From Candidatus Peregrinibacteria bacterium (lineage in GTDB: Bacteria; Patescibacteriota; Gracilibacteria; Peribacterales; Peribacteraceae): a stretch of DNA of 45,658 bases. A model generated the notes under the pieces. That model saw only the letters and a list, made by a program, of their open reading frames with translations. It was not told the DNA's origin and searched no databases. Of the stretch, positions 11,661 to 43,111 are shown one piece after another. Location: assembly GCA_016178535.1 (NCBI GenBank), contig JACOTD010000075.1:1-45658 (forward strand), in the 5' to 3' direction. The translations under genes and the position numbers were made by a program. Position 1 is the stretch's first letter, and each line of letters opens with the position of its first letter.

Positions 11661-13460
11661 TCAATCAATGGTAGGAAATGACAATTTCGCGCGAATCAAT
11701 TCGATCAATTCATCCACGAAGAACGGCCGCCCGTCGTACTTCAGAATCTTCTCATTGATCTCCAGGCCGCACTCCTGGCGAATGAGCACCCCCAGCTGCC
11801 CCTGGTAATTCTGCTCCACGAGGATGATCTTCTTCGCCTTCTTCGCGAGTGCTTGGAGGCGCTCCGTCTTCAAGGGCCACAGATACGTAAAATGCAAATA
11901 GCCGATTCTCTTCCCGCCGAACTTCTCATCTGCAAGTGCATCCAACACTGTGTCCTTCGAGCTCCCCCATCCAACAATGAGACAATCCAATAATGGAGAC
12001 TCATTCGTAATTCGTCCTTTTCCATTTTCAATTTTCCAGAGTTCCGGCTCCGGCAAAGCCTGCTTCAAACTCTCCAGCTTCCGCATCCTCTTCTCCATCT
12101 GTTCCTTCGCGTTCTTGGCCGTCTCATCCACGGTGCCATCTGCATTGTGTTCGTCTCCCTGCGCGCAGTACGTGGCGGCGTTGGACCCGGGAAGCCACCG
12201 CAGCGAGATGCCGTCTTTGACGTTGGGATCGTAGCGATCCGTTCCCTTGAGTTCCTTCAACGCTGCAGGATCGGTGACGAGTTTTCCTCGCTCGACCTTG
12301 ACCTTCGTCTGATCGAAGGGAGTCTGCGTGTAGAGCGCCTCCGCGACCTGCTTGTCCGTGAGGACGATGACGCTGATCTGGAACTCCTCGGCCAGGTTGA
12401 ATGCGACGGGCATCAGATCGAATGCATCCTGACTGTCGCTCACGGCGAGCACGCACCGCGCAAACTCCCCGTGCGCGGTGTGGATCGCCATCAGGAGATC
12501 GCCCTGCGCGGTCCACGTGGGGAGGCCGGTGGCCGGCCCCGGGCGCTGCGCAAGCACGAAGACCGTTGGGTTTTCGAGGATGCCGTTCAAGGAAAGCGTC
12601 TCGCTCATGAGGTCGAAGCCTCCACCCGAGGTCGCGGTGAGCGCGCGCGCGCCCATGAACATCGCTCCGGTGACGATCTGCGCCGCTGTGATCTCGTCCT
12701 CCGCCTGCTTGAGAACCATGCCCGTCTGGTTCTGCAGATCGGCAATGAAGGAGAGGAGCGGACTCGACGGCGTCATCGGATACCCGGCGTACAGACGAAC
12801 GCCAGCGTGCATGGCGCCGAGCCCCATCGCCTGGCTTCCGGTCACGAGCAGGTGATCCTTCCAGACGGGATCGGAGGATGGGAGTGTGACGGAGACACGA
12901 CCGGCCGCAGGATCCGTGTACGAGAATCCTTCCTCGATGCACTTCATGTTGAGCTCCAGGAGATTCTTCTTCTTGGCGAACCGTTCGCCGACGAGCGCTT
13001 TGAGCTCGTCTTTGTCCTGTCCGAGCGCGGCCCACAGGAACGCGGCCAGGAGGACGTTGCCGAGGATCGGTTTGGCTCCGAGTCTCTTGAGGATTTCCTC
13101 GAGCGGGATCGCGATGACGGTACTCTTCCGCGAGCGGAGGAGCTTCTGATCTTCCGGAGAGAATTTCCACTCGGGTGTGAGGTGGATGAGCACTCCGCTC
13201 TCCTTCACATCCGCGAGGTTATGCTCGAGGCCGTGGTGATTGAGCGCCATGACCGCGTTGACCTTCGTCTCCGCGCTGCGGACGCGATCGTTGCTGCAAT
13301 CGAGCTGGTAGGACGCATGGCCGCCCTTGATGAGGGAGGGATACTCGCGATAACCGAACACGCAGTACCCCGCGCGCTTGAGCCCCTTGGCCACGATCTC
13401 CCCGATCGAGTTGATGCCCTGGCCGGATGCGCCGACGATTTTGAGGGAGATGCGTGTCAT
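11661..13460 (-). CDS. korA: 2-oxoacid:ferredoxin/flavodoxin oxidoreductase, fused gamma-alpha subunit
   Basis: 599 aa. N-terminal gamma-like domain (GASGQGINSIG), then alpha-domain motifs GYPMTPSSPLL and ENPTVFVLAQRPGPATGLPT. Confidence 0.9.
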   Translation of the reverse strand: MTRISLKIVGASGQGINSIGEIVAKGLKRAGYCVFGYREYPSLIKGGHASYQLDCSNDRVRSAETKVNAVMALNHHGLEHNLADVKESGVLIHLTPEWKFSPEDQKLLRSRKSTVIAIPLEEILKRLGAKPILGNVLLAAFLWAALGQDKDELKALVGERFAKKKNLLELNMKCIEEGFSYTDPAAGRVSVTLPSSDPVWKDHLLVTGSQAMGLGAMHAGVRLYAGYPMTPSSPLLSFIADLQNQTGMVLKQAEDEITAAQIVTGAMFMGARALTATSGGGFDLMSETLSLNGILENPTVFVLAQRPGPATGLPTWTAQGDLLMAIHTAHGEFARCVLAVSDSQDAFDLMPVAFNLAEEFQISVIVLTDKQVAEALYTQTPFDQTKVKVERGKLVTDPAALKELKGTDRYDPNVKDGISLRWLPGSNAATYCAQGDEHNADGTVDETAKNAKEQMEKRMRKLESLKQALPEPELWKIENGKGRITNESPLLDCLIVGWGSSKDTVLDALADEKFGGKRIGYLHFTYLWPLKTERLQALAKKAKKIILVEQNYQGQLGVLIRQECGLEINEKILKYDGRPFFVDELIELIRAKLSFPTID

Positions 13461-13470
13461 GGGATGAAAG

Positions 13471-13536
13471 GCGAATGGCGAGTTGCGAGTTACGAATCAT
13501 TCGTCACTCGTAACTCGTAATTCGTAATTCGTAATT
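13471..13536. repeat. heptad-repeat hairpin (GCGAATG/CGAGTTA/CGAATC | ATTCGTC/ACTCGTA/ATTCGTA...)
   Basis: The left arm lies in the flavodoxin-korA spacer. The right arm encodes the last ~10 codons of flavodoxin. CGAGTTACGAA pairs with TTCGTCACTCG with one mismatch. Confidence 0.85.
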
Positions 13537-13998
13537 TCCTTGTACAGTTTTCATCAACTCCTCGCCCCAGTGCTTCACTTTCTCCTCCTGCCCATACGGC
13601 TCATTGACGATCGTGAGCATCGGGATGATTTCCACGCCATGGTGTTCTGCGACGAAGGATTGCAGATGCGCCCCCGCCCCCGCCGTGTAGAAGTACCGAT
13701 CATCCCCCAGCGCGATGAGGGCGACCTTCCTGCCCGTCAGATCGACATCGTTCGCGCGATCACGAAGCAGAGCGAACATGTGCGGATTGAGCTGCCCTTC
13801 CTGCCCGCCCGTGTTCCAGGTGGAAGAGGCGAGCAAGAGCACATCGCCCGCGAGGAGATCCGCCGCTTGGGCTTCCTCCGCCCGCTTCACGAGAAGCGTC
13901 CATGTCGCGAGATCGCGGCGCAGCAGATCCGTGAGCAGACCGACCACGTACTCCGTGTGACCGCTCGTGGAGGCCTCGATGATCTGCAGAGAAGGCAC
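13504..13998 (-). CDS. flavodoxin
   Basis: FMN phosphate loop STSGHTEYV, then LLASSTWNTG. 164 aa, GTG start. The C-terminal NYELRITSYE is encoded by the repeat arm. Confidence 0.8.
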   Translation of the reverse strand: MPSLQIIEASTSGHTEYVVGLLTDLLRRDLATWTLLVKRAEEAQAADLLAGDVLLLASSTWNTGGQEGQLNPHMFALLRDRANDVDLTGRKVALIALGDDRYFYTAGAGAHLQSFVAEHHGVEIIPMLTIVNEPYGQEEKVKHWGEELMKTVQGNYELRITSYE

Positions 13999-17055: not shown

Positions 17056-17129
17056 GAATTGCGAAGGGCGATTGGCGAGTTGCGAATGATGAGGCAAATT
17101 CGCAACTCGCAAGTTGCAACTCGCAATTC
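17056..17129. repeat. heptad-repeat hairpin (TTGCGAA type)
   Basis: GAATTGCGAAGGGCGATTGGCGAGTTGCGAAT - loop - AATTCGCAACTCGCAAGTTGCAACTCGCAATTC. Lies in a divergent spacer upstream of the GT2 gene. Confidence 0.85.
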
Positions 17130-17147
17130 TCCAGTATTCTACGATCC

Positions 17148-20759: not shown

Positions 20760-20760
20760 G

Positions 20761-20904
20761 GGCGAGCAAGTATAGGAAGTTTCATGGCCAATGCAAAGCA
20801 AAATTTGCTCCAGAGGAAAGTGGATCAGTGGTTCAGTGTTCAGAGAAATGACCACTACCATGACTCTGAACCGCTGAACTCTGTACACTGTACTCTTGCT
20901 CGCC
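20761..20904 (-). promoter_or_regulatory. structured infC-rpmI spacer (outer 10-bp stem enclosing a heptad-repeat hairpin)
   Basis: GGCGAGCAAG (20761-20770) pairs with CTTGCTCGCC (20895-20904). The inner arms are 20826-20845 and 20864-20883 (TTCAGTG repeats). The outer stem ends 1 nt from the rpmI start codon. Confidence 0.55.
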
Positions 20905-20919
20905 TCCGGACAACAACGA

Positions 20920-21408: not shown

Positions 21409-21509
21409 GCGTGGGCGTCGCTCCTGGTGTTTGTGACGATGGTCGAACCGATGACGTTGTCGCAGAGAGGACAGGGGAAGAGATGTGAAAAGTATAGCCT
21501 TTCCGAGGA

Positions 21510-21578
21510 GAATTGCGAAAGGCGAATGGCAAGTTGCGAATGAATGACCAATCCCCAAATCGCAACTCGCCCTTCGCC
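21510..21578. repeat. heptad-repeat hairpin (TTGCGAA type) with CCAATCCCCA in the loop
   Basis: GAATTGCGAAAGGCGAATGGCAAGTTGCGAATG - AATGACCAATCCCC - AAATCGCAACTCGCCCTTCGCC. Confidence 0.85.
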
Positions 21579-21617
21579 TGCCCTGAGTTATATCGAAGGG
21601 CATTTCGCACATCGTGC

Positions 21618-23083: not shown

Positions 23084-23113
23084 GTGTTTTCCTTATAGTA
23101 TAGCAGAAAGAAG

Positions 23114-23193
23114 GACGATTTACGAGTTACAGAATTACGAATTACGAATGAAAACCCGATACTCCAATCCCCATTCGTAATTCGTAAATCGTC
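23114..23193. repeat. heptad-repeat hairpin (TTACGAA type) with CCAATCCCCA in the loop
   Basis: GACGATTTACGAGTTACAGAATTACGAATTACGAATG - loop with CCAATCCCCA - ATTCGTAATTCGTAAATCGTC. Lies in a divergent spacer upstream of prfB. Confidence 0.85.
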
Positions 23194-23259
23194 ATTGCCC
23201 AAACATGCTTTTCTTCCACCAATCCTCTACACTCCAAGCATTCCATTTCCCCCTTTCCC

Positions 23260-24361: not shown

Positions 24362-24469
24362 TGCTGATGGGAGCATGTCACCCTGAGTAGCACCGCGGTG
24401 CGTATCGAAGGGCGACATGCGAAGATGCTCTCTTTGCAGAAATCAGAGCACTTCAAGTAGTATTTCCCC

Positions 24470-24628
24470 ATGCCTTTGCAGCACACTCGACGGACGGTGA
24501 TCCTCTTCTGCGCGATCATCGTGATCCTTTTCGCGACGGCAGCCTTCGAGATGCAGGCGCTGCGCGCGAGCACGGCGAGATTGGGGGCGATGCAACAAGC
24601 GGCGATGCCGGCGGCGCAGAAAAAATAA
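24470..24628 (+). CDS. small hypothetical membrane protein (52 aa)
   Basis: ATG...TAA ORF below the track cutoff: MPLQHTRRTVILFCAIIVILFATAAFEMQ... with one TM helix. Weak evidence only. Confidence 0.3.
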   Translation: MPLQHTRRTVILFCAIIVILFATAAFEMQALRASTARLGAMQQAAMPAAQKK

Positions 24629-24635
24629 TGCGCAC

Positions 24636-24665
24636 AAAAAAAGCGCCCCGCCTTCGCGAAGCGCT
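24636..24665 (-). terminator. intrinsic terminator after the histone-fold gene
   Basis: The minus strand reads AGCGCTTCGCGAAGGCGGGGCGCT, then TTTTTTT (a run of 7), 14 nt after the stop at 24679. Confidence 0.6.
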
Positions 24666-24678
24666 CCCGAGCGCAGAT

Positions 24679-24849
24679 TTACAAATCGTATCCGCGGACC
24701 GTGACGCGACCGTTGTCCTTGGCGCGCTTTGCGGCCATCTTCACTGCCTCCTCGAGGTAGGCGGATGCGGCCTCCGGGAAGTCACCGGCGGTCATCATGC
24801 CGTGCTTCTTGAGCAGTTCCTTGAGAGCCGAGGCGACGACGTAACTCAT
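24679..24849 (-). CDS. histone-fold protein (short, alpha3-truncated bacterial histone / DUF1931-like)
   Basis: 56 aa: MSYVVASALKELLKKHGMMTAGDFPEAASAYLEEAVKMAAKRAKDNGRVTVRGYDL. Aligns by eye to archaeal HMf alpha1-L1-alpha2-L2, including the GR-x-T-[VI]...D signature. Confidence 0.6.
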   Translation of the reverse strand: MSYVVASALKELLKKHGMMTAGDFPEAASAYLEEAVKMAAKRAKDNGRVTVRGYDL

Positions 24850-24890
24850 AGAAATGGGGTAAAATGGATAAAACAGAGCGATTCTAGGGA

Positions 24891-25199
24891 TCAGAAGGAT
24901 CGAAGCAAGTGAAATTTCTTCATCTTGCGGTCTACTTCGCAAGCTTCGTAGACCCAAGATGCATGGACCAGAAGTGTCTTTTTGCAAAAGCATAGCCCGA
25001 TCCTGCTTTCAAATTCTTCTGCTCGTTGACGATCGTTCAATGGTACAACTACTTCGATTTGCCACGGTACCTGTGGTGCAGTTGTTTTCGTAAGGCCGCG
25101 ATGATGTTCATCCATGCGCGCACGGACATCTTTCGCAGTAAATCCTGCGTAGGTCATCACCGGATTCTTGATGCTTCTGAGGAGGTAGACGTGATACAT
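24891..25199 (-). CDS. GIY-YIG domain protein (UPF0213-like)
   Basis: MYHVYLLRS...YAGFT...RMDEHH...PW..VV...A...E pattern. The track ORF 24891-25340 is trimmed because its N-terminus is the tRNA. Confidence 0.7.
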   Translation of the reverse strand: MYHVYLLRSIKNPVMTYAGFTAKDVRARMDEHHRGLTKTTAPQVPWQIEVVVPLNDRQRAEEFESRIGLCFCKKTLLVHASWVYEACEVDRKMKKFHLLRSF

Positions 25200-25240
25200 G
25201 CTCCCACGGTAGCCAATTCTGCGTAGCTTGCGAAGCAGAA

Positions 25241-25331
25241 TGGCGGTGGGAGAGGGATTCGAACCCTCGAACCCCTTGTGGGGGTTACGCGATTTCGAGT
25301 CGCGCGCCTTCGACCGCTCGGCCATCCCACC
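25241..25331 (-). tRNA. tRNA-Ser (anticodon CGA), CCA encoded
   Basis: GGTGGGATGGCCGAGCGGTCGAAGGCGCGCGACTCGAAATCGCG-long variable arm-GGGTTCGAATCCCTCTCCCACCGCCA. Acceptor stem, CGCGA/TCGCG anticodon stem and T-arm all pair. Confidence 0.9.
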
Positions 25332-25422
25332 AAAAAGCATTCTACAGCATAACGTCCTCTTTGATGATGTTCGCCTGAGTCCTCGCGCGCGCGCCCCTGT
25401 ATTCCTGTCCCTTGTCTTCCCG

Positions 25423-26364
25423 TCACCCCCTCCGCATCTCCGGCTCCAGATACGGAACTCCCAGAGCCGCGTAGATGTCTTCTTCCTCTTTGCTCGCGAT
25501 CATCTTCTCTCCTTCGAAGAGACCGTACTCGCTCAGCTTCCACCCGCGGTCGATGGCGCGCTTGCGCAGCGTGATGTTGTGCTCTTTGTCGCCCGTGAAG
25601 TAGAGCAGCGCGCTCCCCCACTGCGCTTTCTTCACAAAACGAACATCGACTCTCAAACCAGATTGCAGATTGAACGAGAGCTTTCGCTCCCCGTGCGCCA
25701 CCACCTCGCGGACGATGGGAAGCGCGGCAATGGCATCGGAGATCTTCTTGGCATTCCTCGTGACAACGATGATGTCGAGGTCGCCGATCGTTTCTTTGTT
25801 GCGCCGGTACGATCCCGCGATCTCCGCGCGCTCCACGCCCTCGACGCCGCGAACCGTCTTCAACAGCATCTCGGCATCGGCTTCAATTTCTCCGCGAGGG
25901 AATCGCCTCGAGCGTTCCGCCACGTTCCTGGCATTCGCGAGGATCTTCTGCTCGATGACATCCGAGAAGCGGGGAAGCGCCCTGAGCTTCCCCTTCTGCG
26001 CCGCGGCAATGAGCTGAGGAACCGTCGTGATGCCGAGTGTTTGCAGTTGCCGCACGCGCTTGGGACCCAGATCCTCCACTTCCATGAGTTCCGCAGAAAG
26101 TCCACCCTGCGCGGCGAGCAGTTCATCCAGATGATGGATGCGTCCCGTCTGCACGAATTCGATGATCTTCCCCGCAATCGCCTCCCCGATCCCCGGCAAT
26201 TCCATCAATTTCTTCTTGTCCGCGATGAGCGAGACATCCCTCGGCACATCCTCCACCACCTGCGCGGCCCTGCGGTACGCCGCCGGCTTGAACGCCACTC
26301 CCTGCTCATCGAGCAGCGCAGCGATCTGGCGCAATTGCCCTGCGAGCTGATGATTGAGAGTCAT
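25423..26364 (-). CDS. family X DNA polymerase (Pol beta-like core, no PHP domain)
   Basis: HhH motifs (LPGIGEAIAGKI, GPKRVRQL) and the nucleotidyltransferase motif GSYRRNKETIGDLDIIVV. 313 aa. Confidence 0.85.
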   Translation of the reverse strand: MTLNHQLAGQLRQIAALLDEQGVAFKPAAYRRAAQVVEDVPRDVSLIADKKKLMELPGIGEAIAGKIIEFVQTGRIHHLDELLAAQGGLSAELMEVEDLGPKRVRQLQTLGITTVPQLIAAAQKGKLRALPRFSDVIEQKILANARNVAERSRRFPRGEIEADAEMLLKTVRGVEGVERAEIAGSYRRNKETIGDLDIIVVTRNAKKISDAIAALPIVREVVAHGERKLSFNLQSGLRVDVRFVKKAQWGSALLYFTGDKEHNITLRKRAIDRGWKLSEYGLFEGEKMIASKEEEDIYAALGVPYLEPEMRRG

Positions 26365-26411
26365 CGAAAGGACATTTTACACCTCAATCAACAAACCGAA
26401 AGATGAGCCGT

Positions 26412-27014
26412 TTATTGCACATAATCAGCATATTCATCTTCTTCATATCTCGCACGACTTGGTCTTTTCTTGCCTTTGTTCAGAGCTTTGGAGGAGCCAT
26501 TTGAAATGCTCAATCTTCTGATCCTATTGCGAATTGTCTTTGCAGCTGCCGGGATAACAATGCCATTTCCCACTTTGGATTGTTGAATAAGTTGTTCGAC
26601 TGCTTCCCATTCCGAAAGAAGTAAATCGGTGCTCTCTGGATATTGATGGGAAAGCTCACTGACTCTCTGCGTTAATTCAACGCGGAGAGTATCCAATGCG
26701 ACAGTCGTCTCTTTTTCTCCTTGCTCCTGTTGTATCGTGCCAACCGAATCATCTACATATCCCATCTGTAAAGAATTGAGATGGACATCCGATTCCTCGA
26801 GTATTGTCCTGATTTTTTTAGCACGAGCATCTCGAGAATTGTATCGCCAAGGTTCTTTGAGTCTGTGTCCCAAACCCTTCTGAATCATCTGAGTCTCCAG
26901 TGCTTTCATCTCTTCACAAGTAGTCAGTGGACGTGCGACTTCCATGCCGTCGTAAGCAACGGCGCTTTCAACGCGAGACATAGAATGTAAGAAAAGAGAT
27001 GTACCGCTCCACAA
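26412..27014 (-). CDS. hypothetical protein (visibly lower GC than neighbours)
   Basis: 200-codon ORF. Acidic, coiled centre and a basic tail (KGKKRPSRARYEEDEY). No motif recognised. The start could be at 26981. Confidence 0.5.
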   Translation of the reverse strand: MWSGTSLFLHSMSRVESAVAYDGMEVARPLTTCEEMKALETQMIQKGLGHRLKEPWRYNSRDARAKKIRTILEESDVHLNSLQMGYVDDSVGTIQQEQGEKETTVALDTLRVELTQRVSELSHQYPESTDLLLSEWEAVEQLIQQSKVGNGIVIPAAAKTIRNRIRRLSISNGSSKALNKGKKRPSRARYEEDEYADYVQ

Positions 27015-27114
27015 GTACAGAGCGGAAACGGCGACATTCTAAGGATGAGAAACCAAGAGTCAACTTTCGAGAGAGATGCTTCGAAGATTTCCTCTCTGTG
27101 AAGAGGAAAAACAC

Positions 27115-27171
27115 CACTGGGCAAGGGTCGCGGGCAAGTATGCCCGCTCCTCAGGGGATAAAATTACTTTC
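27115..27171 (+). repeat. GCGGGCA-AGTA-TGCCCGC hairpin element, copy B
   Basis: CACTGGGCAAGGGTCGCGGGCAAGTATGCCCGCTCCTCAGGGGATAAAATTACTTTC. Closely related over roughly 55 nt to the reverse complement of 38454-38510 (scattered mismatches). Confidence 0.85.
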
Positions 27172-27180
27172 GAAGATTCT

Positions 27181-27217
27181 TCATTCGTAATTCGTAATTC
27201 GTCACTCGTAAATCGTC
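27181..27217. repeat. single-armed heptad repeat (ATTCGTA type)
   Basis: CATTCGTAATTCGTAATTCGTCACTCGTAAATCGTC. Its reverse complement is about 32/36 identical to the left arm at 23114-23150. Lies just 3' of ahcY. Confidence 0.85.
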
Positions 27218-27224
27218 ATTCCCG

Positions 27225-28478
27225 TCACGTCCCCTCCTCCCAACTCGACAAATACTTCTTCTGCTCGTCAGTGAGAGTGTCGATCGTGAGTCCCATCGCC
27301 TCAAGCTGGAGGTGTGCGATGAAGTCGTCGATTGCGGGCGGGAGCGTGATGACGCCGGGAGCGAGCTTCCCTTTGTTCTTCACGAGGTACTCGCACGCGT
27401 GCGCCTGGCCGCAGAAGGAGAGGCTCATCACTTCGCTCGGGTGGCCCTCCGCCGAAGCGAGATTCACGAGACGCCCTTCGCCGGCGACGTAGAGGATGTT
27501 GCCCGAGGGGAGAAGGTACTCGTCGAGGTAGTGGCGCACCCGGCGCTTGCGGCGCGCATTCTTCTCGAGCGCCTGGAGATCGATCTCGCAGTCGAAGTGG
27601 CCGGAATTCGCGAGGACGACGCCGTCCTTCATGCGTTCCATGTGCTCCAGGCGGATCACGTGAATGTCGCCCGTGACGGTGATGAAGAGATCCCCGAGCG
27701 GGGTGGCCTCCGCCATCGGCATCACGCGGTGCCCGTCCATCGCCGCCTGGAGCGCGGCGAACGCGTCGACTTCCGTGACGATCACCTGCGCGCCGAGCCC
27801 CTGCGCGCGCAGCGCAACGCCCTTGCCGCAGCTCCCGTACCCGAGGACGACGATCGTCTTCCCGGCGATGAGGAGGCCCGTCGAGCGGAGGATGCCGTCG
27901 ATGGTCGACTGGCCCGTGCCGTAGTAGTTGTCCATCAGGTGTTTGGTCTTGTTGTCGTTCACCGCGATCATGGGGATCGTGAGGACGCCGTCGCGCTGCA
28001 TCGAACGGAGCCGGATGATGCCCGTCGTCGTCTCCTCGCAGCCGCCGAGCATGGAGGGAAGAAGATCGGCATGCTTGCGGTGGATCTCGGAGACCAGATC
28101 GCAGCCGTCGTCGATCGTGATCTGCGGCTGCGTTTCGATCACAGCGCCCAGGAACCGGTAGTAATCCTCGGTGCTCTCACCCCTGTAGGCCCACACTCTC
28201 ACATTCTTCTCCTCCGCGAGAGCCGCAGCGACGTCATCCTGCGTGCTCAAGGGATTGCAGCCCGTGATTGCGACCTCGGCGCCGCCTGCGGTGAGGGTGG
28301 AGACGAGGACGGCCGTCTCTTTGGTGACATGCAGCGCCATGCCGATCGTGAGACCGACGAAGGGCTTCTCCTTGCGGAAGCGCTCGCGTACTGTGAGGAG
28401 CGCGCCCATGCGCTTCTCCGCGAGTTCAATGTTCAAACGACCTTGAGGGGCCAGGGAGGGATCTGTGACGTGGGACAT
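27225..28478 (-). CDS. ahcY: adenosylhomocysteinase (short ~417-aa form)
   Basis: Motifs TKETAVL, CNPLSTQDDVAAAL, NAD site VLGYGSCGKGVA, NSGHFDCEID. Start at MSHVTDP. Confidence 0.9.
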   Translation of the reverse strand: MSHVTDPSLAPQGRLNIELAEKRMGALLTVRERFRKEKPFVGLTIGMALHVTKETAVLVSTLTAGGAEVAITGCNPLSTQDDVAAALAEEKNVRVWAYRGESTEDYYRFLGAVIETQPQITIDDGCDLVSEIHRKHADLLPSMLGGCEETTTGIIRLRSMQRDGVLTIPMIAVNDNKTKHLMDNYYGTGQSTIDGILRSTGLLIAGKTIVVLGYGSCGKGVALRAQGLGAQVIVTEVDAFAALQAAMDGHRVMPMAEATPLGDLFITVTGDIHVIRLEHMERMKDGVVLANSGHFDCEIDLQALEKNARRKRRVRHYLDEYLLPSGNILYVAGEGRLVNLASAEGHPSEVMSLSFCGQAHACEYLVKNKGKLAPGVITLPPAIDDFIAHLQLEAMGLTIDTLTDEQKKYLSSWEEGT

Positions 28479-28480
28479 AC

Positions 28481-28573
28481 GAAATTGAAAATGGATACTT
28501 GAAAATTGAACATGAGGGAAGCTACTCTTGCAATACGCAGAATTGTCAATTATCAATTGTCCATTGTCAATTC
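28481..28573. repeat. imperfect repeat hairpin (TTGAAAA / TTGTCAA units)
   Basis: The left arm GAAATTGAAAATGGATACTTGAAAATTGAAC matches the reverse complement of the right arm GAATTGTCAATTATCAATTGTCCATTGTCAATTCC at about 24/30. The right arm overlaps the kinase stop. Confidence 0.7.
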
Positions 28574-29518
28574 CGGGAGTCTCTCCCCATACGTCTCCTC
28601 CGCTCTGCCGAAAATGTCATCGATGTCCACGTGATCGAGGAGCGTGCCTTCCCTCTCCACGACGAAGGAGGCGATGGAAGCGCCCAGCATCCCGCACTGC
28701 CGAAGGTCCCATCCTGAAGCGAGGCCTGCGAGAACTCCAGCGCGCAGTGCATCGCCCGCCCCCGTGGGGTTCACCAGAGCATCCGGCCTGCAGGCCGGGA
28801 GGATGATCGCCGGTTCCTTGCGGCGGTAGATCGTGAGGCCTTCTTCCCCGGCAGTGACGATGAGGAGAGGAGTGAGATCGAGGAGTTTGCTCGTGGAAAC
28901 TCCGACCTTCTCGGAGAGGAGGCTCCATTCGTAGGTGTTGGCAATCACTCCGGCGGCGCCCTCGATGGCACTGACGAGTTCATCGCGGCTGAGAGCGATC
29001 ACCTGCTGCCCCGGATCGAAGAGGTAGGGCACCTTCCACACGCGGCACCAGCGGACGGCCTGCATCATCGCGGTCGGATCGCGCGGGCTCACAATGGCAT
29101 GGACGAACTCTTCGCGCTGATCGGCGAGATCTGCCGGCCAGGAGGCATGGGCATCCGCGCCCGGGTGGAAGAAGGCGATCTGCCGCTCGCCGGTATCGGT
29201 CCCGATGATCGCCGTCGCCGTCACGCAGTCCGAGCGCACTTCAATGCGCGAGGTGTCGATGCCGCGCTCACGAAGCAGCGCGAGGTACGCCTCGCCATCG
29301 GCGCCGACGGAGGAGACGAGGAGAGGATTCTGGACGAGCAATTTCAAATTCCACGCGATGTTGGCGCCCGTGCCGCCGTGGTGTCGCGCGAAGTGCGGGC
29401 TGAAGAACGAGACGGAGAGATGCTCCAGATCCGAGGGATCGATGGCATCGCGGAATGACCCGTCGTAGCCGAGGAGGAGATCGTAGGCGATGGAACCGGT
29501 GACCAAAATATGCGTCAT
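28553..29518 (-). CDS. PfkB-family carbohydrate/nucleoside kinase (adenosine-kinase-like by context)
   Basis: Motifs HHGGTGANIAWN and C-terminal NPTGAGDALRAG. Start at MTHILVTGS (alternative ATG at 29527). Upstream of ahcY on the same strand. Confidence 0.8.
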   Translation of the reverse strand: MTHILVTGSIAYDLLLGYDGSFRDAIDPSDLEHLSVSFFSPHFARHHGGTGANIAWNLKLLVQNPLLVSSVGADGEAYLALLRERGIDTSRIEVRSDCVTATAIIGTDTGERQIAFFHPGADAHASWPADLADQREEFVHAIVSPRDPTAMMQAVRWCRVWKVPYLFDPGQQVIALSRDELVSAIEGAAGVIANTYEWSLLSEKVGVSTSKLLDLTPLLIVTAGEEGLTIYRRKEPAIILPACRPDALVNPTGAGDALRAGVLAGLASGWDLRQCGMLGASIASFVVEREGTLLDHVDIDDIFGRAEETYGERLPELTMDN

Positions 29519-29543
29519 GGAATTCATGATACCATGGGATCCC

Positions 29544-30956
29544 ATGCGCATCGCCGTCATTGGCACCGGCTACGTCGGGCTCGTCTCCGCCGCCTGCTTC
29601 GCGGAACTGGGACACCACGTCACGGGCGCGGATATCGACGAGGCGAAGATCGCGATGCTGAAGGAAGGGAAGAGCCCCATCTACGAGCCGGGGCTTGAAG
29701 AATTGATCGCACGAGGACTCAAGAGCGGCCTCCTGCACTTCACGACCGACGTGAAGGAATGTCTCCCCGAGGTCCAGATCCTCTTCTCCGCCGTCGCAAC
29801 GCCGCCCAACGAAGATCGCAGCGCCGACCTGCAGGCGGTGTTCACCGTCGCGAGGACGGTCGCGGAACACGTCGATCACGATCTGGTCTTCGTGAACAAA
29901 TCGACCGTTCCCGTCGGCACCGGGAAGAAGTGCGAAGCGCTCATGGCCGAGATCCTCAAAAAGCGCGACCTGAACGTCTCAATCCCCGTCGTCAGCAATC
30001 CCGAATTCCTCCGCGAGGGAATGGCCGTGGGAGACACATTGATGCCGGATCGGATCGTGGTGGGAGTCAATGGAAACAATAGAGAAATTACGAATGACGA
30101 GTTGCGAGTTGCGAATGGAACTCGTAATTCGCAATTCGTAACTCGTAATTCATTCAATGCCTCAGCATTGATGGAAGAGCTCTACCGCCCCGTCACCCGC
30201 GTCGGCAAGCCCCTTCTCTTCATGAGTCGCGAGAGCGCGGAGATCGTGAAGTATGCGAGTAACGCGTTCCTGGCGACGAAAATCAGCTTCATCAACATGC
30301 TGACCGAATTCTGCGAGAAGACGGGGGCCAACATCCGCGATATCGCGCGCGGCATGGGCTTGGATGACCGCATCGGGCCGCGGTTCCTGCACGCCGGCAT
30401 CGGGTACGGCGGCAGCTGCTTCCCCAAAGATGTGAAGGCTCTCCTCGCGATGGCCAAGGAACACGGATTCGATTTCAGCATCGTCGAAGCGACCGACCGC
30501 ATCAACACGCGCCAGCGTCATCGCTTCTTCGAGAACATTCTGAAGACGCTCACGCCGAAGTCGACGGTCGCGATCTGGGGCCTTGCCTTCAAGCCCAAGA
30601 CCGACGACATGCGCGAGGCGCCGAGTTTGGATCTGCTTCGGAAGCTCGTTGATGAGGGGCACACCGTGAAGGCATACGATCCCGCCGCTGAGGAGAATGC
30701 GAGAAAACTGCTTCCAGAAATAAGCTCCTCACCAACAATGGAGTCAAACATCCTTTATCTCCATTCATCCATCGCAGCTGCAAGAGATGCGGATGCCATC
30801 GTACTTCTCACGGAGTGGGATGAATTTCGTGGCGTCGACCTCCATGAAGTTGCCAAGACTATGAAAGGGAAAGATCTCTTCGACGGCCGGAACGTCTACG
30901 AGCCGACCGAGGTGCGCGCGGCGGGGCTCGTCTACCATGGGATTGGGATCGTCTGA
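29544..30956 (+). CDS. ugd: UDP-glucose 6-dehydrogenase
   Basis: Motifs MRIAVIGTGYVGLV, NPEFLREG, GIGYGGSCFPKD. Contains a ~24-aa in-frame repeat insertion. Confidence 0.9.
   Translation: MRIAVIGTGYVGLVSAACFAELGHHVTGADIDEAKIAMLKEGKSPIYEPGLEELIARGLKSGLLHFTTDVKECLPEVQILFSAVATPPNEDRSADLQAVFTVARTVAEHVDHDLVFVNKSTVPVGTGKKCEALMAEILKKRDLNVSIPVVSNPEFLREGMAVGDTLMPDRIVVGVNGNNREITNDELRVANGTRNSQFVTRNSFNASALMEELYRPVTRVGKPLLFMSRESAEIVKYASNAFLATKISFINMLTEFCEKTGANIRDIARGMGLDDRIGPRFLHAGIGYGGSCFPKDVKALLAMAKEHGFDFSIVEATDRINTRQRHRFFENILKTLTPKSTVAIWGLAFKPKTDDMREAPSLDLLRKLVDEGHTVKAYDPAAEENARKLLPEISSSPTMESNILYLHSSIAAARDADAIVLLTEWDEFRGVDLHEVAKTMKGKDLFDGRNVYEPTEVRAAGLVYHGIGIV
30083..30154. repeat. heptad-repeat hairpin embedded in frame in ugd
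   Basis: GAAATTACGAATGACGAGTTGCGAGTTGCGAATGG AA CTCGTAATTCGCAATTCGTAACTCGTAATTCATTC, translated as EITNDELRVANGTRNSQFVTRNSF. Confidence 0.85.
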
Positions 30957-31278
30957 GAGAAGCGGCTTGCAACATCAACAAATGATGCGCCTTATCCAAG
31001 GCGAGTTCCCGGAGTTGCTTGAAGGTCATGTCTGAAGCTCGCTCTGCTCCGGGATCATGCTCAAGCAAAGCATCCGCCACTGCGACGATCATGTCTGGAT
31101 CGGCAAACGCAACGTCACGTCCATCGATCGCAACGGAGAGTTTTGAATCGTTGTTCAGTGCTCGGCGAAGATTCGCAATCAGCTGTTGACGGACATCCTT
31201 GATAGCTGAAGTGCGAACTTTTGCATCAGGGTGGATCTCAGAAGATGAGCACGAAGGCGGAGGCGTGAGAATGGCCAT
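30859..31278 (-). CDS. hypothetical protein (possible antitoxin-like; doubtful 3' end)
   Basis: ATG at 31278 (MAILTPPP). Lower-GC spacer. The last ~33 codons are Arg-rich and overlap the 3' end of ugd, so the true end is uncertain. Confidence 0.3.
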   Translation of the reverse strand: MAILTPPPSCSSSEIHPDAKVRTSAIKDVRQQLIANLRRALNNDSKLSVAIDGRDVAFADPDMIVAVADALLEHDPGAERASDMTFKQLRELALDKAHHLLMLQAASLRRSQSHGRRAPPRAPRSARRRSGRRRDLSLS

Positions 31279-35256: not shown

Positions 35257-36342
35257 CTACACCCTCCACGTGAACATCCTGCTCATCGTGTAATTCCAGA
35301 TCATGCCCACGAGCGCCCCGAGCGCGACGGCGGGGACGATGCCAAGGGAACGCGACAAGAGATGCGCCGTCACGGCGTAGTTCGCGAACGCACCGAAGAG
35401 GCAGGCGACGTTGTAGCGCAGGAAACCGAGGATGGCGCCGCCGCCCTCAAGCCGCACGGGCGCGACGGTCCAGACGTTGTTGAGCAGAAAGTTGAAGAGG
35501 ATTGCTCCTTCGATCCCGGCCAGCAACGGAACGGAGAGACCGAGGAAGCGCGCATCGAAAGCGATGAGCGTGGAGCACACGAGGTAGATGCCGAGATTGA
35601 CCGCCACCCCGAGCGCGCCGACGAGGCAGTACTTCACGAAGGTGAGCGGCACGTAGCGCCCGAGGCAGGCTTCGTACAGATACTCGAGGAATTCGATCTG
35701 CACTCTCCGCGAGAGCTTGCTTTCCCCGTGTCGGCGATTGGAGAACGTGAAGGGCACTTCGCGGACGGGTGTTGCGCGCGACACGTGCATCAGGAGATCG
35801 AGGAGGATCTTGAATCCCTTGGGGTTGAGACGAGGCAGGACTTCCTCGAACGTCGAGCGATGAATGGCGAAGAAGCCGCTCATGGGATCCTTCACGGTGA
35901 CCCTGCAGAGCCGGATCGCAAATGCAGTTGCGAAGCGGCTCATGACATGCCGCCGCTCGTCCCACTGCCCGATACTCCCGCCCTCCGCGTACCGTGACCC
36001 GATCGCAAGCCCGCCGTTCGTCGTGACGGCATGGGCGAGCTTCGGAAGAATCCCCATGTCGTGCTGACCGTCCGCATCCATCACCGCAAGCACATCGCCT
36101 TTCGCAGCCAGGAATCCCTCGATGACCGCGGAGGAGAGTCCTCTCCGCCCGATCCTCCGTAGAACGTGCACGTGAGCATCGTCCTTTGAAATCCCCCGTG
36201 CCGCTTTCCACGTCCGATCCGGAGAATCGTCGTCGACGATGATGATCTCGAAGGACATGCCGCCCAGCGCCCGCTCGATCTGGGGAACGAGCTCGGGGAG
36301 ATTCTGAGCCTCATTGTAGGTGGGGAGGATGAGGGAGAGCAC
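35257..36342 (-). CDS. polyprenyl-phosphate sugar synthase (Dpm1-like GT2) fused to a GtrA-like membrane domain
   Basis: Motifs LILPTYNEAQNL, IIIVDDDSPDRTW, MDADGQHD. Four C-terminal TM helices. GTG start at 36342 proposed; the only ATG (36483) would read through a repeat hairpin. Confidence 0.8.
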   Translation of the reverse strand: MLSLILPTYNEAQNLPELVPQIERALGGMSFEIIIVDDDSPDRTWKAARGISKDDAHVHVLRRIGRRGLSSAVIEGFLAAKGDVLAVMDADGQHDMGILPKLAHAVTTNGGLAIGSRYAEGGSIGQWDERRHVMSRFATAFAIRLCRVTVKDPMSGFFAIHRSTFEEVLPRLNPKGFKILLDLLMHVSRATPVREVPFTFSNRRHGESKLSRRVQIEFLEYLYEACLGRYVPLTFVKYCLVGALGVAVNLGIYLVCSTLIAFDARFLGLSVPLLAGIEGAILFNFLLNNVWTVAPVRLEGGGAILGFLRYNVACLFGAFANYAVTAHLLSRSLGIVPAVALGALVGMIWNYTMSRMFTWRV

Positions 36343-36390
36343 GGAAAGAGTGTAACAGGGATTGGATGAAAGCGGAGAGCCCGCTACGAT

Positions 36391-36495
36391 GAACGCGTTT
36401 CTGGTTTTTCGTTTTTCGTTTTCCTTGTCGATCGTGGAAAGAAACGAGAAACGCCTGCCCGTCGAAGTCGGAAAAACGAGCAACGAAAACGTTTC
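36391..36495. repeat. repeat hairpin (CGTTTTT / AAAAACG units) in a divergent spacer
   Basis: CGTTTCTGGTTTTTCGTTTTTCGTTTTCC ... GGAAAGAAACGAGAAACGC ... GGAAAAACGAGCAACGAAAACGTTTC. Confidence 0.8.
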
Positions 36496-36516: not shown

Positions 36517-37431
36517 ATGCGAGTATTGGTTACAGGATCATCGGGGACCATCGGCACGCGGCTCTGCGAGAAGCTCCTTGAACGGGGGCAGCAAGTCTGC
36601 GGCGTCGATTGGGTTCCCAACAGGTGGCAGCAGACAGTGAACGCCGTGACGACGACGATCGATCTGCGCTCGTGGGAAGCGCTCGAGCGTTGGGACGCTC
36701 CGACGGACATCGACGCCATCGTCCACCTCGCGGCGAACGCGCGGGTCTACGAACTCGTGGAACATCCGAACCGGGCGCGGGACAATTTTTTGACGCTCTT
36801 TACTGTGCTCGAGTTCGCACGAGAACGCGGCATCAAACGTGTGCTCTTCGCCTCCTCGCGCGAGTGCTACGGCAATGCGGATTACGAGCGGTACACCGAA
36901 GATCTCGTGCGGGTGGAGAACTGCGAGAGCCCGTACACCGCGAGCAAGCTCGGGGGCGAGGCGTTCGTTCATGCGTACACGCGTTGCTACGGCATCGATC
37001 ACGTCCTCCTGCGCTTCTCAAACGTCTACGGAATGTACGACGATTCCAACCGCGTCATTCCCCTCTTCATCCGCCAGGCACGCGCGAACGAGCCGCTGAC
37101 GATCTTCGGAGAGGGAAAATGCCTCGATTTCACCCACATCGACGACACCGTCGCCGGGATCATCGCCGCTCTCGACCGCTTCGAGACGGCCAAGAACGAT
37201 ACGTACAACATCGCCTACGGCGAAGGAACGACGATTCTGAAACTCGCGGAAGATGTGATCCGCCTCACCGGAAGTTCCTCGACGATCGCAATGGAAGAAC
37301 CTCGCACCGGGGAAGTGATCCGTTACATCGCGGACATTTCCAAAGCGAAGCGGGTGCTTGGGTACGATCCCAAGGTTCCGTTCGAAGAAGGAATCAGGAA
37401 GACGGTGGAGTGGTATCAGCAACATTCGTAA
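36517..37431 (+). CDS. NAD-dependent epimerase/dehydratase (SDR)
   Basis: Motifs MRVLVTGSSGTIGTRL and the catalytic YTASK. 304 aa. Confidence 0.85.
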   Translation: MRVLVTGSSGTIGTRLCEKLLERGQQVCGVDWVPNRWQQTVNAVTTTIDLRSWEALERWDAPTDIDAIVHLAANARVYELVEHPNRARDNFLTLFTVLEFARERGIKRVLFASSRECYGNADYERYTEDLVRVENCESPYTASKLGGEAFVHAYTRCYGIDHVLLRFSNVYGMYDDSNRVIPLFIRQARANEPLTIFGEGKCLDFTHIDDTVAGIIAALDRFETAKNDTYNIAYGEGTTILKLAEDVIRLTGSSSTIAMEEPRTGEVIRYIADISKAKRVLGYDPKVPFEEGIRKTVEWYQQHS

Positions 37432-38788: not shown

Positions 38789-40026
38789 CAGCGTGACGGG
38801 GAGAAGCGGACGAGGACGCCGCCGTGCGGGAAGGTCTGGAGAATCGTCCCGGGACGATGGAGACCGTCGCAGACGAACTCCCCGCGATAGAACTGCCACT
38901 CGTGCAGAGTCGCGATGGCGAATGCGGCGCGCCGCCATACCTGCTCGGAGGGAAACGCATCCGCGGGGAAGAGAAGGTAACGGAGGATCTTCGCCTCGAC
39001 GCCGTGATTGCGTCCGCACACCGCGGCCACCGTGCCGGGAGTGAGAGTCGCCTGTGAACGGAGCGCATCCGCGGCGAGATAGACATCTCCCGTTCCTCCG
39101 TAGACGTGTTCCGTTTCCCATCGCTGCACCTGGACAAGTGACGATGCAAAAGCATCCGGCAGAAAACGCAGTTGGTAGAGCCCGAGGAAGATGATCGTAA
39201 CCAACAGGAAATGTCTGAGCGCGCCCGCTTGTGGTGAGCCTGGCCGAACCATCCACGGGTGCGCCTTGAACGGGTGCGGCCATTGTTGCAATGATGATCG
39301 CGACCCCTGCCCAGAGGAATTTCCCGAATGATGTTCCCGAATGGATTTCCACAGCATCAAAAGATCAACCACCGCCACAAGAACCGCCATCGCGACGAAT
39401 CCCACCCCCAGAATGAACGCCAAGGACATCCCGCCGACGACATACCCCCGCAGCACGCTCTGGGACGACACCTGCCACGGCTCGCTTCTGCGAAGTTGGA
39501 CAAGCATCGACCATGCGCGATCGGCGAGATTCCCCCGGTCCTCCACCGCAATCGTCCGGAGGTTCACCGGCTGATCTCCGCGCTGGAACAGATACAGAAC
39601 GGCCCCCGCGCCGCGCGGTTTCCATCCGGGAAGGGCGCGCAACGAGAGCACGGCTTCTTGGTTTGTCCCGGGGGGGAGGACGCTCACGAGGAGATTCGCA
39701 TCGTTGTAGCCTTGCGCAAGGGCGGCATCCGCGACGGCGTAGAGGACGGGAACGGGGAGGGCGGCGGAGTAGCGGATGCGCAGCTGCGTTCCGGGGAGGG
39801 GCAGAACCTCATGACGTGACTGAGTGTCTTGATGCGCAGAGGGATGCAGGACGCGCTCGACAAGAGTCGTGACCTGTTCGCCGCTCGTGACGATCGTCGA
39901 TGGAACCTCCCGCGGATCGGGCGGCGTGCGCAGCAAGAACATCACGAGCGTTGCCGCCCCCAGGCACAGAACCAAGACCGAGAACACGAGGATGGACCGC
40001 CGAGCGCGTGAAGAGGATGTCATCAT
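38788..40026 (-). CDS. hypothetical membrane protein
   Basis: 412 aa. N-terminal TM helix ([21 protein letters not shown]), a central TM helix ([21 protein letters not shown]) and one more. ATGA overlap with the upstream gene. Confidence 0.6.
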
Positions 40027-41732
40027 GCGGACTTTCCCTCATGGTAATCCATCTCGAGGTTGACCTCCCACAGATTGGACTTGTCGCTGCGACCGGCAAT
40101 GATATTGTCCACCGCCGTCATCGCCGTGAGCATGCTGTGATCCTGATTGTTGTACCGGTGCATGCCGTTTCTGCCGATGAGGAAGAGATTGGGAACGGTC
40201 TCGACGAAATCCCGCACCACGCCGATCTGCTCGTAGCTGCCGATGTAGGCGGGGTAGGCCTTGGGCATGCGCAGCACACAGGCATCGAGGACGTCTGAGC
40301 GGCGCAGGAATCCGATCGTCTCCATCTCACGAATCCCGAGCTGAATGATCTCCCGATCGGGCTGCACCCACAGATCGCCGCCCTCGTTGACGAAGTACTC
40401 GAGCCCGATCCACACGGTGTTCCTGCGATCGGCGACCATGTACGGGCTCCAGTTGTTGAAAATCTGCACTCTCCCCACGCGCACCCCTCCGTCCTGGATG
40501 TAGATCCAATTATCCGGCACGCGCGCGGCAGGATTCTTCCCCTTCTCCCGCACGTGGAGGCTCTTCACGAGCAAACCGACGGTGAGGAAATCGCGGTAGT
40601 GGAGACCCTCGGCCACCTCCACGACGCGCGAGGGCGGATGCGGGCGCATCATCCCGATCAGGTGCTTGATCGGCATCGTGGAGAAGAAGAAGTCACAGGG
40701 AACCCGTTCGATCTCGCCCGTGTCGGCATTCTCGATCTCGACGCTCGTCACGCGACCGGCTGTCAGGTGCACGCCGCTGACCCTCCGCCGCATCCGGACT
40801 TCTCCGCCGCATTTCCGGATGTGGTCGGTCACCGTCTCCCACATCTGTCCCGGCCCGAACTTGGGATAGTGGAACCGCGTGATGAGGCTCGTCTCGCGCT
40901 CCTGCTGCGCCTTCTGAAAATCGCTGCTGAGGAGATCTTTGACCGCATGGACGATAGCCCGCTTGAGCGAGAGGCCTTTGATCCGCTGCGCGCCCCAGTC
41001 CGCGCGGATCTGATCGCACGGCACGCCCCACACCTTCTCCGTGTAGTCCTTGAAGAACGTCTCGTAGAGGCGCACGCCGAAGCGGTTGGTGAAGAAGGCA
41101 TCGAGGTACGTTTCGTCGCGGATGGGAAACATCTGCGCCTTCACGTAACTCAGACCGATGAGGAAGGTGTTGAGGAGTCCGAGCCTGCGCGCGACCGTCA
41201 GCGTGATGCCGATGGGGTACGGGAAGAAGTGCCGACGGTAGAAGATGCGCGAAAGACGGGGACGTTGGAGCATGACGGCATCCTCTTTTCCGGGATCGGG
41301 GGCATTTCTCTTGATTGCAGGTGACAATGAATGAGTTACGAATTCCGATTTACGAGTTACGAATTGGTCCGGCTTTCGTAATTCGTAACTCGTAACTCGT
41401 AATTCCTCAGGGATGCATTCTTTACACAAATACTCCACAGTCACCTCCGCCACATACTCAATCTCATGTCCTTTCTCCGCCGTATCCGCCGAAGGTGAAC
41501 CTTGCGGAGGGAGGATGTTGAACCACCACTGCATCACGCGTTCGCTCTTGCTGAAGAACCGATGCCCCCCGATGTCGATGCGGTTGCCCTTGTAGTTGAA
41601 GGTCTGCGCGATCCCGCCGATCGCGGCTGTCTCCTCCAGCACGATCGGATGGATGTCCGTACGCTTGAGGAGTTCGTAGGCGGCGGTGAGGCCGGCGGGG
41701 CCGGCCCCTGCGATGATGGCAATTTTTTTCAT
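40023..41732 (-). CDS. FAD/NAD(P)-binding oxidoreductase (amine-oxidase / UDP-galactopyranose-mutase-like fold)
   Basis: N-terminal [20 protein letters not shown]...LEETAAIGG dinucleotide fold. C-terminal [14 protein letters not shown]. Contains an in-frame hairpin insertion. Confidence 0.8.
41329..41406. repeat. heptad-repeat hairpin embedded in frame in the FAD oxidoreductase gene
   Basis: GAATGAGTTACGAATTCCGATTTACGAGTTACGAATTGG - TCCGGCT - TTCGTAATTCGTAACTCGTAACTCGTAATTCC. The sense strand encodes [27 protein letters not shown]. Confidence 0.85.
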
Positions 41733-41822
41733 GGAAAATCGGAAGCAATGGTACAGGGAAATGTCCAAACAGTCGCAACGGGAAGCTCCCTTCAATCGTC
41801 AGAAAAATTGTGGAATCGTGGA

Positions 41823-42923: not shown

Positions 42924-43111
42924 TGGTGGAGCGTGGGGGAATCGAACCCCGCTCCGCGGTTCTCAAGACGCGGAGGCCAACCTGGCCACGCCCCATAACT
43001 CGGCTGTACGATCGTACACCATTCTTCTTGACGCTCGCAAGGCTAAGAGGGTATGCTGACAATGGTTCTCAAGACGCGGATGGCCTTCCGGGCCAATCGA
43101 ATTCCCGCCCC
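42924..43111 (-). ncRNA. ssrA: tmRNA-like gene (ssrA), unusually short (~188 nt)
   Basis: 5' GGGGCGGGAAUUCGAU..., 3' ...GGAGCGGGGUUCGAUUCCCCCACGCUCCACCA. The acceptor stem has a G3:U70 pair. UCCGCG/CGCGGA forms a P2-like helix. One frame is open to a UGA at 42963-42965. Confidence 0.6.

Follow-up and report, generated by a model that had tools for sequence, protein, structure and literature searches.

The DNA analysed here, called the window below, is a 45,658-nt contig of Candidatus Peregrinibacteria bacterium (Peribacteraceae, a member of the candidate phyla radiation, CPR), taken whole. On its minus strand lies a gene for an oxidoreductase dependent on flavin adenine dinucleotide (FAD) and NAD(P), and an inverted repeat built of 7-nt units is embedded in this gene at 41333–41405. 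A sister copy lies in the ugd gene of the same contig. The repeat, its effect on the reading frame, its presence or absence in orthologues and its likely origin are described here.

The hairpin in the oxidoreductase gene

The open reading frame (ORF) of the oxidoreductase runs without interruption over 40023..41795 on the minus strand. Mechanical extension of the frame reaches a TTG at 41795; the true start is almost certainly the ATG at 41732, giving a protein of 569 residues. The Pfam domains NAD_binding_8 and Amino_oxidase are found in it, as the N-terminal Rossmann fold. A sequence search of the PDB matched residues 158–432 to the UDP-galactopyranose mutase (UGM) of A. fumigatus (E = 3e-12), and eukaryote-type UGMs are the nearest solved relatives by sequence, although distant ones. 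The insert lies in a loop just after the CxxC motif of this UGM-like flavoenzyme. Because the PDB alignment starts only at residue 158, the insert (residues 111–138) can not be placed on a solved structure.

The arms of the hairpin are tandem heptamers, TTACGAR and YTCGTAA (Table 1). Each arm (41333–41363 and 41375–41405) is 31 nt long, the two are 84% complementary, and a loop of 11 nt separates them. They read GAGTTACGAATTCCGATTTACGAGTTACGAA and TTCGTAATTCGTAACTCGTAACTCGTAATTC on the plus strand. The sense strand over the hairpin is TGC ATC CCT GAG GAA TTA CGA GTT ACG AGT TAC GAA TTA CGA AAG CCG GAC CAA TTC GTA ACT CGT AAA TCG GAA TTC GTA ACT CAT TCA TTG TCA. Its RNA fold has an energy of −31.7 kcal/mol (z = −4.67), which was equalled by 0 of 200 shuffles. 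The DNA fold of the hairpin gives z = −5.2, again with no shuffle as good. In the minimum free energy (MFE) fold the arms pair in a register slipped by one unit.

Since the gene is intact, transcription and translation of the hairpin are expected, with 28 residues added to the protein. The borders of the extra segment are approximate because the flanking residues vary too. An AlphaFold2 (AF2) model built on 29 orthologues gives a predicted local distance difference test score (pLDDT) of 33–37 over residues 111–140, and a disordered loop at the surface is the probable form of the insert. The model is compatible with such a loop but gives weak evidence for it, since its mean pLDDT is a poor 61.8 and the surroundings of the insert are modelled with low confidence too.

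An independent Logan contig, L206 (SRR12113389), is identical to the window over 4858 of 4858 bases. Position 1 of L206 corresponds to window position 41404, that is, exactly to the outer edge of the hairpin. The gene call from L206 (P0116) is truncated to 416 residues because this assembly starts at the hairpin edge.

The third unit of the 3′ arm sets the frame problem. At codon 130 (41732 − 41345 = 387 = 3 × 129) the consensus unit would read TCG-TAA and place a stop in frame; the actual codon is GAA. The G of this GAA faces an A in the 5′ arm and is uncompensated. The TAAs of units 1, 2 and 4 are intact and out of frame. An earlier sequence-only reading of this DNA had claimed an in-frame repeat hairpin in an FAD oxidoreductase, in which CGGAA stood for CGTAA at the in-frame position and the other three TAAs were intact. 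Each of these points holds in the 569-residue gene, and L206 carries the same CGGAA. The claim that ugd shows the same pattern is also correct. The ugd copy (gene at 29541..30956) consists of the units CTCGTAA, TTCGCAA, TTCGTAA and CTCGTAA; TTCGCAA is the unit in frame, and three out-of-frame TAAs are intact.

Table 1. Positions of the hairpin, its parts and related arrays in the window, and repeat units at the same oxidoreductase site in other loci
Feature	Position	Strand	Evidence
FAD/NAD(P)-dependent oxidoreductase gene, host of the hairpin	40023..41732	minus	ORF, Pfam, orthologues, PDB sequence search
5′ arm on mRNA, tandem TTACGAR units (GAATTACGAGTTACGAGTTACGAATTACGAA), no stop in any of the three frames	41375..41405	minus	
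Loop, AGCCGGACCAA on the sense strand; differs from the loops of the other window copies	41364..41374	minus	
3′ arm on mRNA, units TTCGTAA CTCGTAA ATCGGAA TTCGTAA CTC	41333..41363	minus	
Unit 3 (ATCGGAA) of the 3′ arm; codon 130 = GAA at 41345–41343	41343..41349	minus	
Extra coding segment relative to base-state orthologues, residues 111–138, 84 nt, multiple of 3	41319..41402, approximate	minus	Alignment and variable-region table
Sister copy in frame within ugd, between the Pfam N-terminal and central domains	30088..30150	plus	
Family copy between the flavodoxin and pyruvate:ferredoxin oxidoreductase (POR) genes	13470..13538	.	
Intergenic copy, 24-nt loop, both arms ending in an A-type unit (ATCGTCA / ATCGTCC)	23115..23200	.	
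Intergenic copy, TTGCGAR/YTCGCAA variant units, close upstream of a gene for a GT2 glycosyltransferase	17065..17130	.	
One-armed array, five YTCGTAA-type units, directly 3′ of the S-adenosylhomocysteine hydrolase (ahcY) stop codon	27176..27218	plus	
One-armed composite array, GAAAATK then TTACGAA units, encodes LWKIENGKGRITNES	12004..12040	minus	
Oxidoreductase site of L081 (protein 83% identical): CGGTTCA units			DNA level
Oxidoreductase site of L083: GTTGCAG units			DNA level
Oxidoreductase site of L010: AGACATG / CTCAAGT units			DNA level
Oxidoreductase site of L207: TTGCGAA / TGAAGAA units			DNA level
Oxidoreductase site of L002: GC-rich hairpin			DNA level
Oxidoreductase site of L085: two non-complementary arrays, GAAAATK and ATTCTCA			DNA level

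With a unit of 7 nt the frame moves by one per unit, and every third YTCGTAA has its TAA in frame. An intact ORF through three or more units must be without that TAA. The pattern therefore reflects survivorship and is not independent evidence. Among units free of coding constraint, TAA is kept in 19 of 37, and the 18 non-TAA units carry the variants CAA, TCA, CCA and TCC. In the oxidoreductase and ugd copies together, TAA is present in 0/2 in-frame units vs 6/6 out-of-frame units (Fisher p = 1/28 = 0.036), a difference that is suggestive in a small sample.

The units equivalent to unit 3 are also A-initial and non-TAA in two other copies, ATCGTCA in the copy at 23 kb and ATCGCCC in that at 17 kb, and the A-initial units of the window are all (5/5) without TAA. 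Therefore the source copy of the oxidoreductase hairpin may never have had a stop at unit 3. GAA itself is found in no other unit of the window (~45 units), and this, together with the lack of compensation in the opposite arm, favours a private change. The in-frame CAA of ugd is probably inherited and not a rescue mutation, because this variant is common in the family and pairs with the G of TTGCGAG across the stem. That in-frame stops are selected against is certain; rescue of the oxidoreductase copy by a later point mutation is possible.

The sequence-only reading had argued from the two genes, as two independent cases, that these elements invade coding regions and are then tolerated through point changes. 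Invasion is well supported by the dispersed family and by the 31 of 119 orthologues at base state described below. Tolerance through point changes is not, given the survivorship and the 18 of 37 unconstrained units that are non-TAA anyway. Nor do the two cases argue for it, since a non-TAA unit in frame is a precondition for seeing such a copy at all and the ugd CAA looks inherited.

Occupied and empty loops among orthologues

Orthologues of the oxidoreductase are 72–83% identical to it and all come from Candidatus Peregrinibacteria/Peribacteraceae, which are CPR bacteria. Both flanks of the insert are highly conserved in one frame across the 119 sequences. The stretch between ...EYLCPEC and APDPEKED... 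varies from ~0 to ~70 residues in nearly invariant surroundings. In 31 of the 119 (26%) the loop is short, as in LCPECSPDGKTVKVTMKDV, LCPECSEGKPEKRA or LCRDCAPEGETHVKRP, and this is the base state; in 84 (~70%) a longer segment is present. The window protein has 28 residues (111–138) beyond the P0013-like sequences.

A protein-alignment scan of genome contigs gave ~10 Peribacteria loci among the matches listed; the remainder are homologues of ~50% identity and serve as outgroup only. The entire CxxC loop is missing in these homologues, which come from many other phyla, among the matches listed. The base-state orthologues and the distant homologues without the segment show that the segment is not ancestral. 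The alignment of orthologues and search for empty sites proposed with the sequence-only reading thus gave base-state forms for both genes (31/119 for the oxidoreductase and 51/112 for ugd), and conservation of the segment in distant homologues was not seen among the matches listed.

The ugd orthologues behave likewise. Those with base spacing read GVNGDDHARKIMEELY, and the others have gained +1 to +42 residues at a single point. At the DNA level, the ugd site holds a hairpin of the TTRCGAA family in the window, L208 and L209, three genomes in all, and one of GGACAGT units in a fourth genome, L210. An addition of exactly +5 residues at the insertion point, e.g. GINGDAVSDRLDAKAL or GINGKAHSYNLTAKSL, was observed in 13 of the 112 orthologues. 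This class could be the footprints of lost hairpins.

In a neighbour-joining tree of the oxidoreductases, from which the variable segment was left out, occupied and empty forms are interleaved. Like insert types, such as the GLRTED...PKSQVPSPKS type, recur in several of its clades. The units identified at the DNA level differ from locus to locus (Table 1).

A peptide-only test asked whether complementary DNA could encode the two halves of an insert. At p ≤ 0.01 it was positive for 17 of 85 long oxidoreductase inserts vs 1 of 120 control segments, and for 10 of 25 long ugd inserts vs 1 of 92 controls. The power of this test is low (the DNA-verified hairpin L081/P0001 scores p = 0.14), and the counts are lower bounds. 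Across Peribacteria, both loops, in the oxidoreductase and in ugd, are hot spots of repeated insertion.

The load of heptamer arrays differs among lineages. None is present in 12–22 kb for L002–L005, vs 4–11 in comparable or smaller stretches of the window, L007, L010, L083 and L085. This uneven load suggests lineage-specific activity.

Hairpins of the same architecture with other units (GAGATCT, CGGACGA, GGCAGGA, GAAGACC) were observed at L050 1264–1328 and 4985–5122, L039 897–961 and L067 947–1046. These contigs are labelled Thermoguttaceae, Acidobacteria and Gemmatimonadaceae, and the architecture is therefore not confined to CPR. A metagenome-wide scan with TCGTAAYTCGTAAYTC gave at least 120 contigs of very mixed environments and GC contents and can not be used as a census of the family. 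Among the matches listed in that scan, 15 of 147 elements are of the hairpin type. The ORF-embedded arrays of three or more units among the matches listed are all read in the stop-free orientation, but this could not be otherwise and is no evidence.

Dispersed copies and the origin of the hairpin

The motif TTCGTAAYTCGTAA, with up to two mismatches, has 25 matches in the window vs 0.17 expected. Thirteen arrays of period 7 are found in the window, two of period 9 and none of periods 5, 6 and 8. After merging, the window has 11 arrays in 45.7 kb; loci of other phyla have 28 in 1.25 Mb, so that arrays are ~11-fold denser in the window. A copy typically has ~4 tandem heptamers, a variable loop and ~4 reverse-complement heptamers. 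At least seven window copies align over 4 + 4 units, with a common unit order and the common termini GA(R)GAAATTACGA...TCGTAAYTCAT. Three copies lie within genes and one overlaps the 3′ end of a gene, making 3 to 4 of the ~9 in the window.

At the locus L083, a stretch of 30 nt (one mismatch) is common to the copy in the gene and to an intergenic copy at a distance of 5 kb, in opposite orientation. The shared stretch includes the asymmetric loop AAAAGCGATT, which argues for copying rather than local origin. Within a genome, the same unit family is found at the oxidoreductase and ugd sites in the window and in SRR15669520 (L207/L208) at the DNA level, and in P0018/P0132 at the peptide level. 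A shared family at both sites fits either repeated colonisation by an active family or homogenisation between copies.

It is probable, on the evidence of the sequences compared, that the hairpin is a copy of a small repeat family dispersed in Peribacteria, which entered the oxidoreductase in frame at a permissive loop where such copies are gained, lost and replaced. Copies would persist in genes only if the site tolerates the added residues, the length is a multiple of three and no stop falls in frame. In this family, the last point would require that each third unit in the YTCGTAA arm lack TAA. The unit ATCGGAA would then have been picked from the abundant unit variants or made by a T-to-G change. 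The different hairpins, or none, seen in the same loop by lineage would mean that, at a few permissive sites, copies are rapidly gained, lost and replaced, and would not go back to a single accident. Spread would most likely depend on a copy mechanism acting on the hairpin, and slippage and intra-hairpin template switching would reshape the arrays later. A link to TnpA of the IS200/IS605 type is conceivable, since IS608 targets TTAC, but it would concern one unit family only.

Several observations weigh against insertion of a dispersed element. The aligned window copies show no direct repeat at their flanks, and neither a target-site duplication nor a sharp boundary can be defined from them. 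No transposase or RAYT-like gene (RAYT, REP-associated tyrosine transposase; REP, repetitive extragenic palindromic sequence) was found among the ORFs of the 45.6-kb contig, several of which have no Pfam match. In GCA_016201685.1, the closest relative (81–83% identity), different heptamer families occupy the oxidoreductase and ugd sites, so that two independent replacements or a conversion process are needed. The arrays in POR and 3′ of ahcY are one-armed. Finally, orthologues of the epimerase at window 36517..37431 carry heptamer arrays in the same loop, TGTGAGC in L083 (17656–17687) and TTTCAGC in L007 (4437–4461). These loops, ..ALIAHSSQLTAD.. and ..KLKAESYNLKAD.., show no net change of length against the non-repetitive ..ALERWDAPTDID.. 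of the window, and slippage or conversion explains this more easily than insertion does. Local processes clearly also act on the arrays.

The one-armed arrays, the equal-length epimerase loops and the different unit families at the same site in close relatives also speak for a purely local origin. By this account a 7-nt seed grows by slippage and intra-strand template switching without any preformed element, and the likeness of the copies comes from a genome-wide mutational bias. The slipped register of the MFE fold agrees with it, and an excess of heptanucleotides in many bacterial genomes has been ascribed to polymerase slippage (Mrazek et al. 2007, as quoted in the parts available of PMC4679880 and PMC4692102). 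However, local growth would not be expected to give the L083 copies a common non-repetitive, asymmetric loop within their shared 30 nt, nor to let the window copies align end to end with the same termini and unit order, including the A-type third or terminal unit. Base-state orthologues also have no obvious 7-nt seed at the site. A local origin is unlikely on balance.

Selection for the hairpin structure itself, as a translational pause, an RNase III entry site or a recombination signal whose sequence is free while pairing is kept, would account for the strong stems (z = −4.7) and for the fact that, in two genes, many orthologues have hairpins of unrelated sequence at one codon position. This is very improbable, since 26% of oxidoreductase and ~50% of ugd orthologues do without any insertion, the same elements are scattered through intergenic DNA and other genes, and the two L085 arrays are not complementary. 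Furthermore, there is no Rfam family match, and the stop-avoiding G weakens the stem without compensation.

The genes around the oxidoreductase encode ugd-family dehydrogenases, a GDP-mannose-dehydratase-like protein, GT2/GtrA glycosyltransferases and epimerases, and the locus is therefore a surface-glycan cluster. Such a cluster (ugd, GDP-mannose dehydratase, GT2, GtrA) is a typical setting for phase variation, in which gain and loss of a 7-nt unit, not a multiple of three, would by slippage switch the enzyme on and off as in contingency loci. The arrays are imperfect, with at most two consecutive identical units per arm, the window and L206 assemblies are identical, and the paired assemblies of two other species, L084/L085 and L082/L083, show no variation in array length apart from an N-gap, all of which leaves phase variation even less probable than a selected structure. 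Least credible is an assembly chimera or a dead gene with an accidentally open frame: the break of L206 at the hairpin edge, with its 416-residue call, would suit an artefact, but the 45.6-kb contig has the hairpin in its interior, L206 matches it at every base, many independent metagenome-assembled genomes from different studies have in-frame hairpins of a like kind, and both flanks are highly conserved in one frame.

Other arrays of the window touch further genes. The copy at 13470–13538 is directly upstream of the POR start codon (13460), and the flavodoxin ORF (13504..13998, minus strand) extends into its right arm. The flavodoxin ends in ...GNYELRITSYE. Its last ~10 codons (NYELRITSYE) are element-derived, and the unit variant TTCGTCA, read as its reverse complement, provides its TGA stop. 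The array at 12004–12040 is in frame in the POR gene (11661..13460, minus strand), between POR_N and PFOR_II, and its GAAAATK units are of the same family as those at the oxidoreductase site in L085.

At 28541–28568, where the pfkB-kinase gene meets that for S-adenosylhomocysteine hydrolase, there is a heptamer array of AATTGTC / TTGACAA units. Since TTGACA is part of the unit, the array yields, on the minus strand, the top sigma-70-like match of the scan (TTGACA-17-GACAAT, 10/12). A GTTTTTC heptamer array at 36397–36426 lies between the divergent genes for GT2-GtrA (35257..36483, minus) and the epimerase (36517..37431, plus). A tRNA-like gene whose anticodon has four bases (tgag) is called by ARAGORN at 42924–42994 on the minus strand, just past the start of the GDP-mannose-dehydratase-like gene; it has no Rfam match at the gathering score. 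For the tRNA-Ser(CGA) at 25241–25331 ARAGORN and Rfam agree.

Relation to known repeats and significance

Two familiar classes were rejected. The heptamer hairpins are not among the 25 terminator-like sites in 12000–31000, and their stems of ~40% GC have no T tail, unlike intrinsic terminators. As to known structured RNAs, Rfam gave only sub-threshold plant and animal microRNA hairpins, at 15–25 bits vs gathering scores of 51–135. The sole match in the Rfam scan of the window is a tRNA.

Over-represented heptanucleotide repeats include the short tandemly repeated repetitive (STRR) sequences of Calothrix/Nostoc, GGGAATC in Xanthomonas and TAACTGA in Beggiatoaceae (PMC4692102, PMC4679880). Inverted arrangements able to form stem-loops were noted for GGGAATC of Xanthomonas, and the stop codons of the unit limit gene overlap for TAACTGA in Beggiatoaceae (PMC4692102, PMC4679880). 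The present arrays resemble these STRR and long simple sequence repeats (LSSR) in their exact 7-nt tandem units, the over-representation of period 7 and a unit sequence specific to the genome. The known heptanucleotide repeats are mainly intergenic direct repeats, whereas here the inverted pair is standard and a large share of copies lies in genes.

Rickettsia palindromic elements (RPEs), in-frame palindromic repeats within metabolic genes, are described as a hallmark of Rickettsia (Ogata et al. 2000, via the part available of PMC10969869). Going by that excerpt, the present copies resemble RPEs as dispersed palindromes that lie both between genes and, to an unusual extent, in frame in unrelated housekeeping or metabolic genes, where the ORF is kept and an extra peptide is translated, as is expected here. 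Both occur in small, reduced genomes, and in both cases orthologues without the element exist. As described there, RPEs are ~100–150 bp long, form families with a conserved peptide and have no tandem heptamers, whereas the present copies are ~70–85 bp of 7-nt units. Unit sequence and encoded peptides also differ between lineages here, and one loop is hit repeatedly. No relationship in sequence between the two is expected.

REP sequences with their REPIN arrangements, and MITEs, the miniature transposable elements with inverted repeats, are likewise short, hairpin-forming, dispersed repeats in within-genome families, and the copying between loci in L083 is a further likeness (PMC3116915, PMC10969869). 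REPs, however, are extragenic and have a conserved 5′ tetranucleotide and a cognate RAYT, while here copies lie in genes and no RAYT was found in the window (PMC3116915, PMC10969869). MITEs have terminal inverted repeats, target-site duplications and a parent insertion sequence; in the present case the whole element is the inverted repeat, its borders are fuzzy and no transposase domain was found in the scanned ORFs of the window. Internal heptamer periodicity is a feature of neither REP/REPIN nor MITE.

The paper on complete Peribacteria genomes makes no mention of such repeats. The literature search on Peregrinibacteria/Peribacteria and repeats found no report of heptamer hairpins in CPR. 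The element joins both known phenomena, being a heptamer-array hairpin, often one expected to be translated, in a CPR lineage.

Where small repeats enter essential or metabolic genes in frame, selfish or mutationally generated DNA turns directly into new protein sequence, a route that is rare. Rickettsia is the textbook case of in-frame repeats creating protein sequence. Here the process is met in a CPR bacterium with a genome of ~1 Mb, and it links the excess of heptamers with in-frame palindromic elements. In practice, the hairpins break assemblies, truncate gene calls (as in P0116) and inflate the apparent divergence of proteins in CPR genomes.

Most worth following up is that different unit families have come to occupy the same loop positions again and again. 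With the same codon position occupied in about half or more of the orthologues of two enzymes, a natural experiment is at hand for rates of gain and loss, tolerance of the loops and homogenisation within genomes. A wider proposal is possible but doubtful, namely that Peribacteria, and perhaps other CPR, harbor an active, so far undescribed class of heptamer-hairpin micro-elements with fast turnover, homogenised per genome and repeatedly colonising a few enzyme loops through either a copying activity specific to hairpins or conversion between copies. It is supported by the occupation of one exact position per gene in ~50–70% of orthologues, by the unit family shared between the oxidoreductase and ugd sites in the genomes named above, and by the other families at both sites in the closest relative. 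If true, such a class would steadily add lineage-specific peptide insertions to genomes that are otherwise streamlined.

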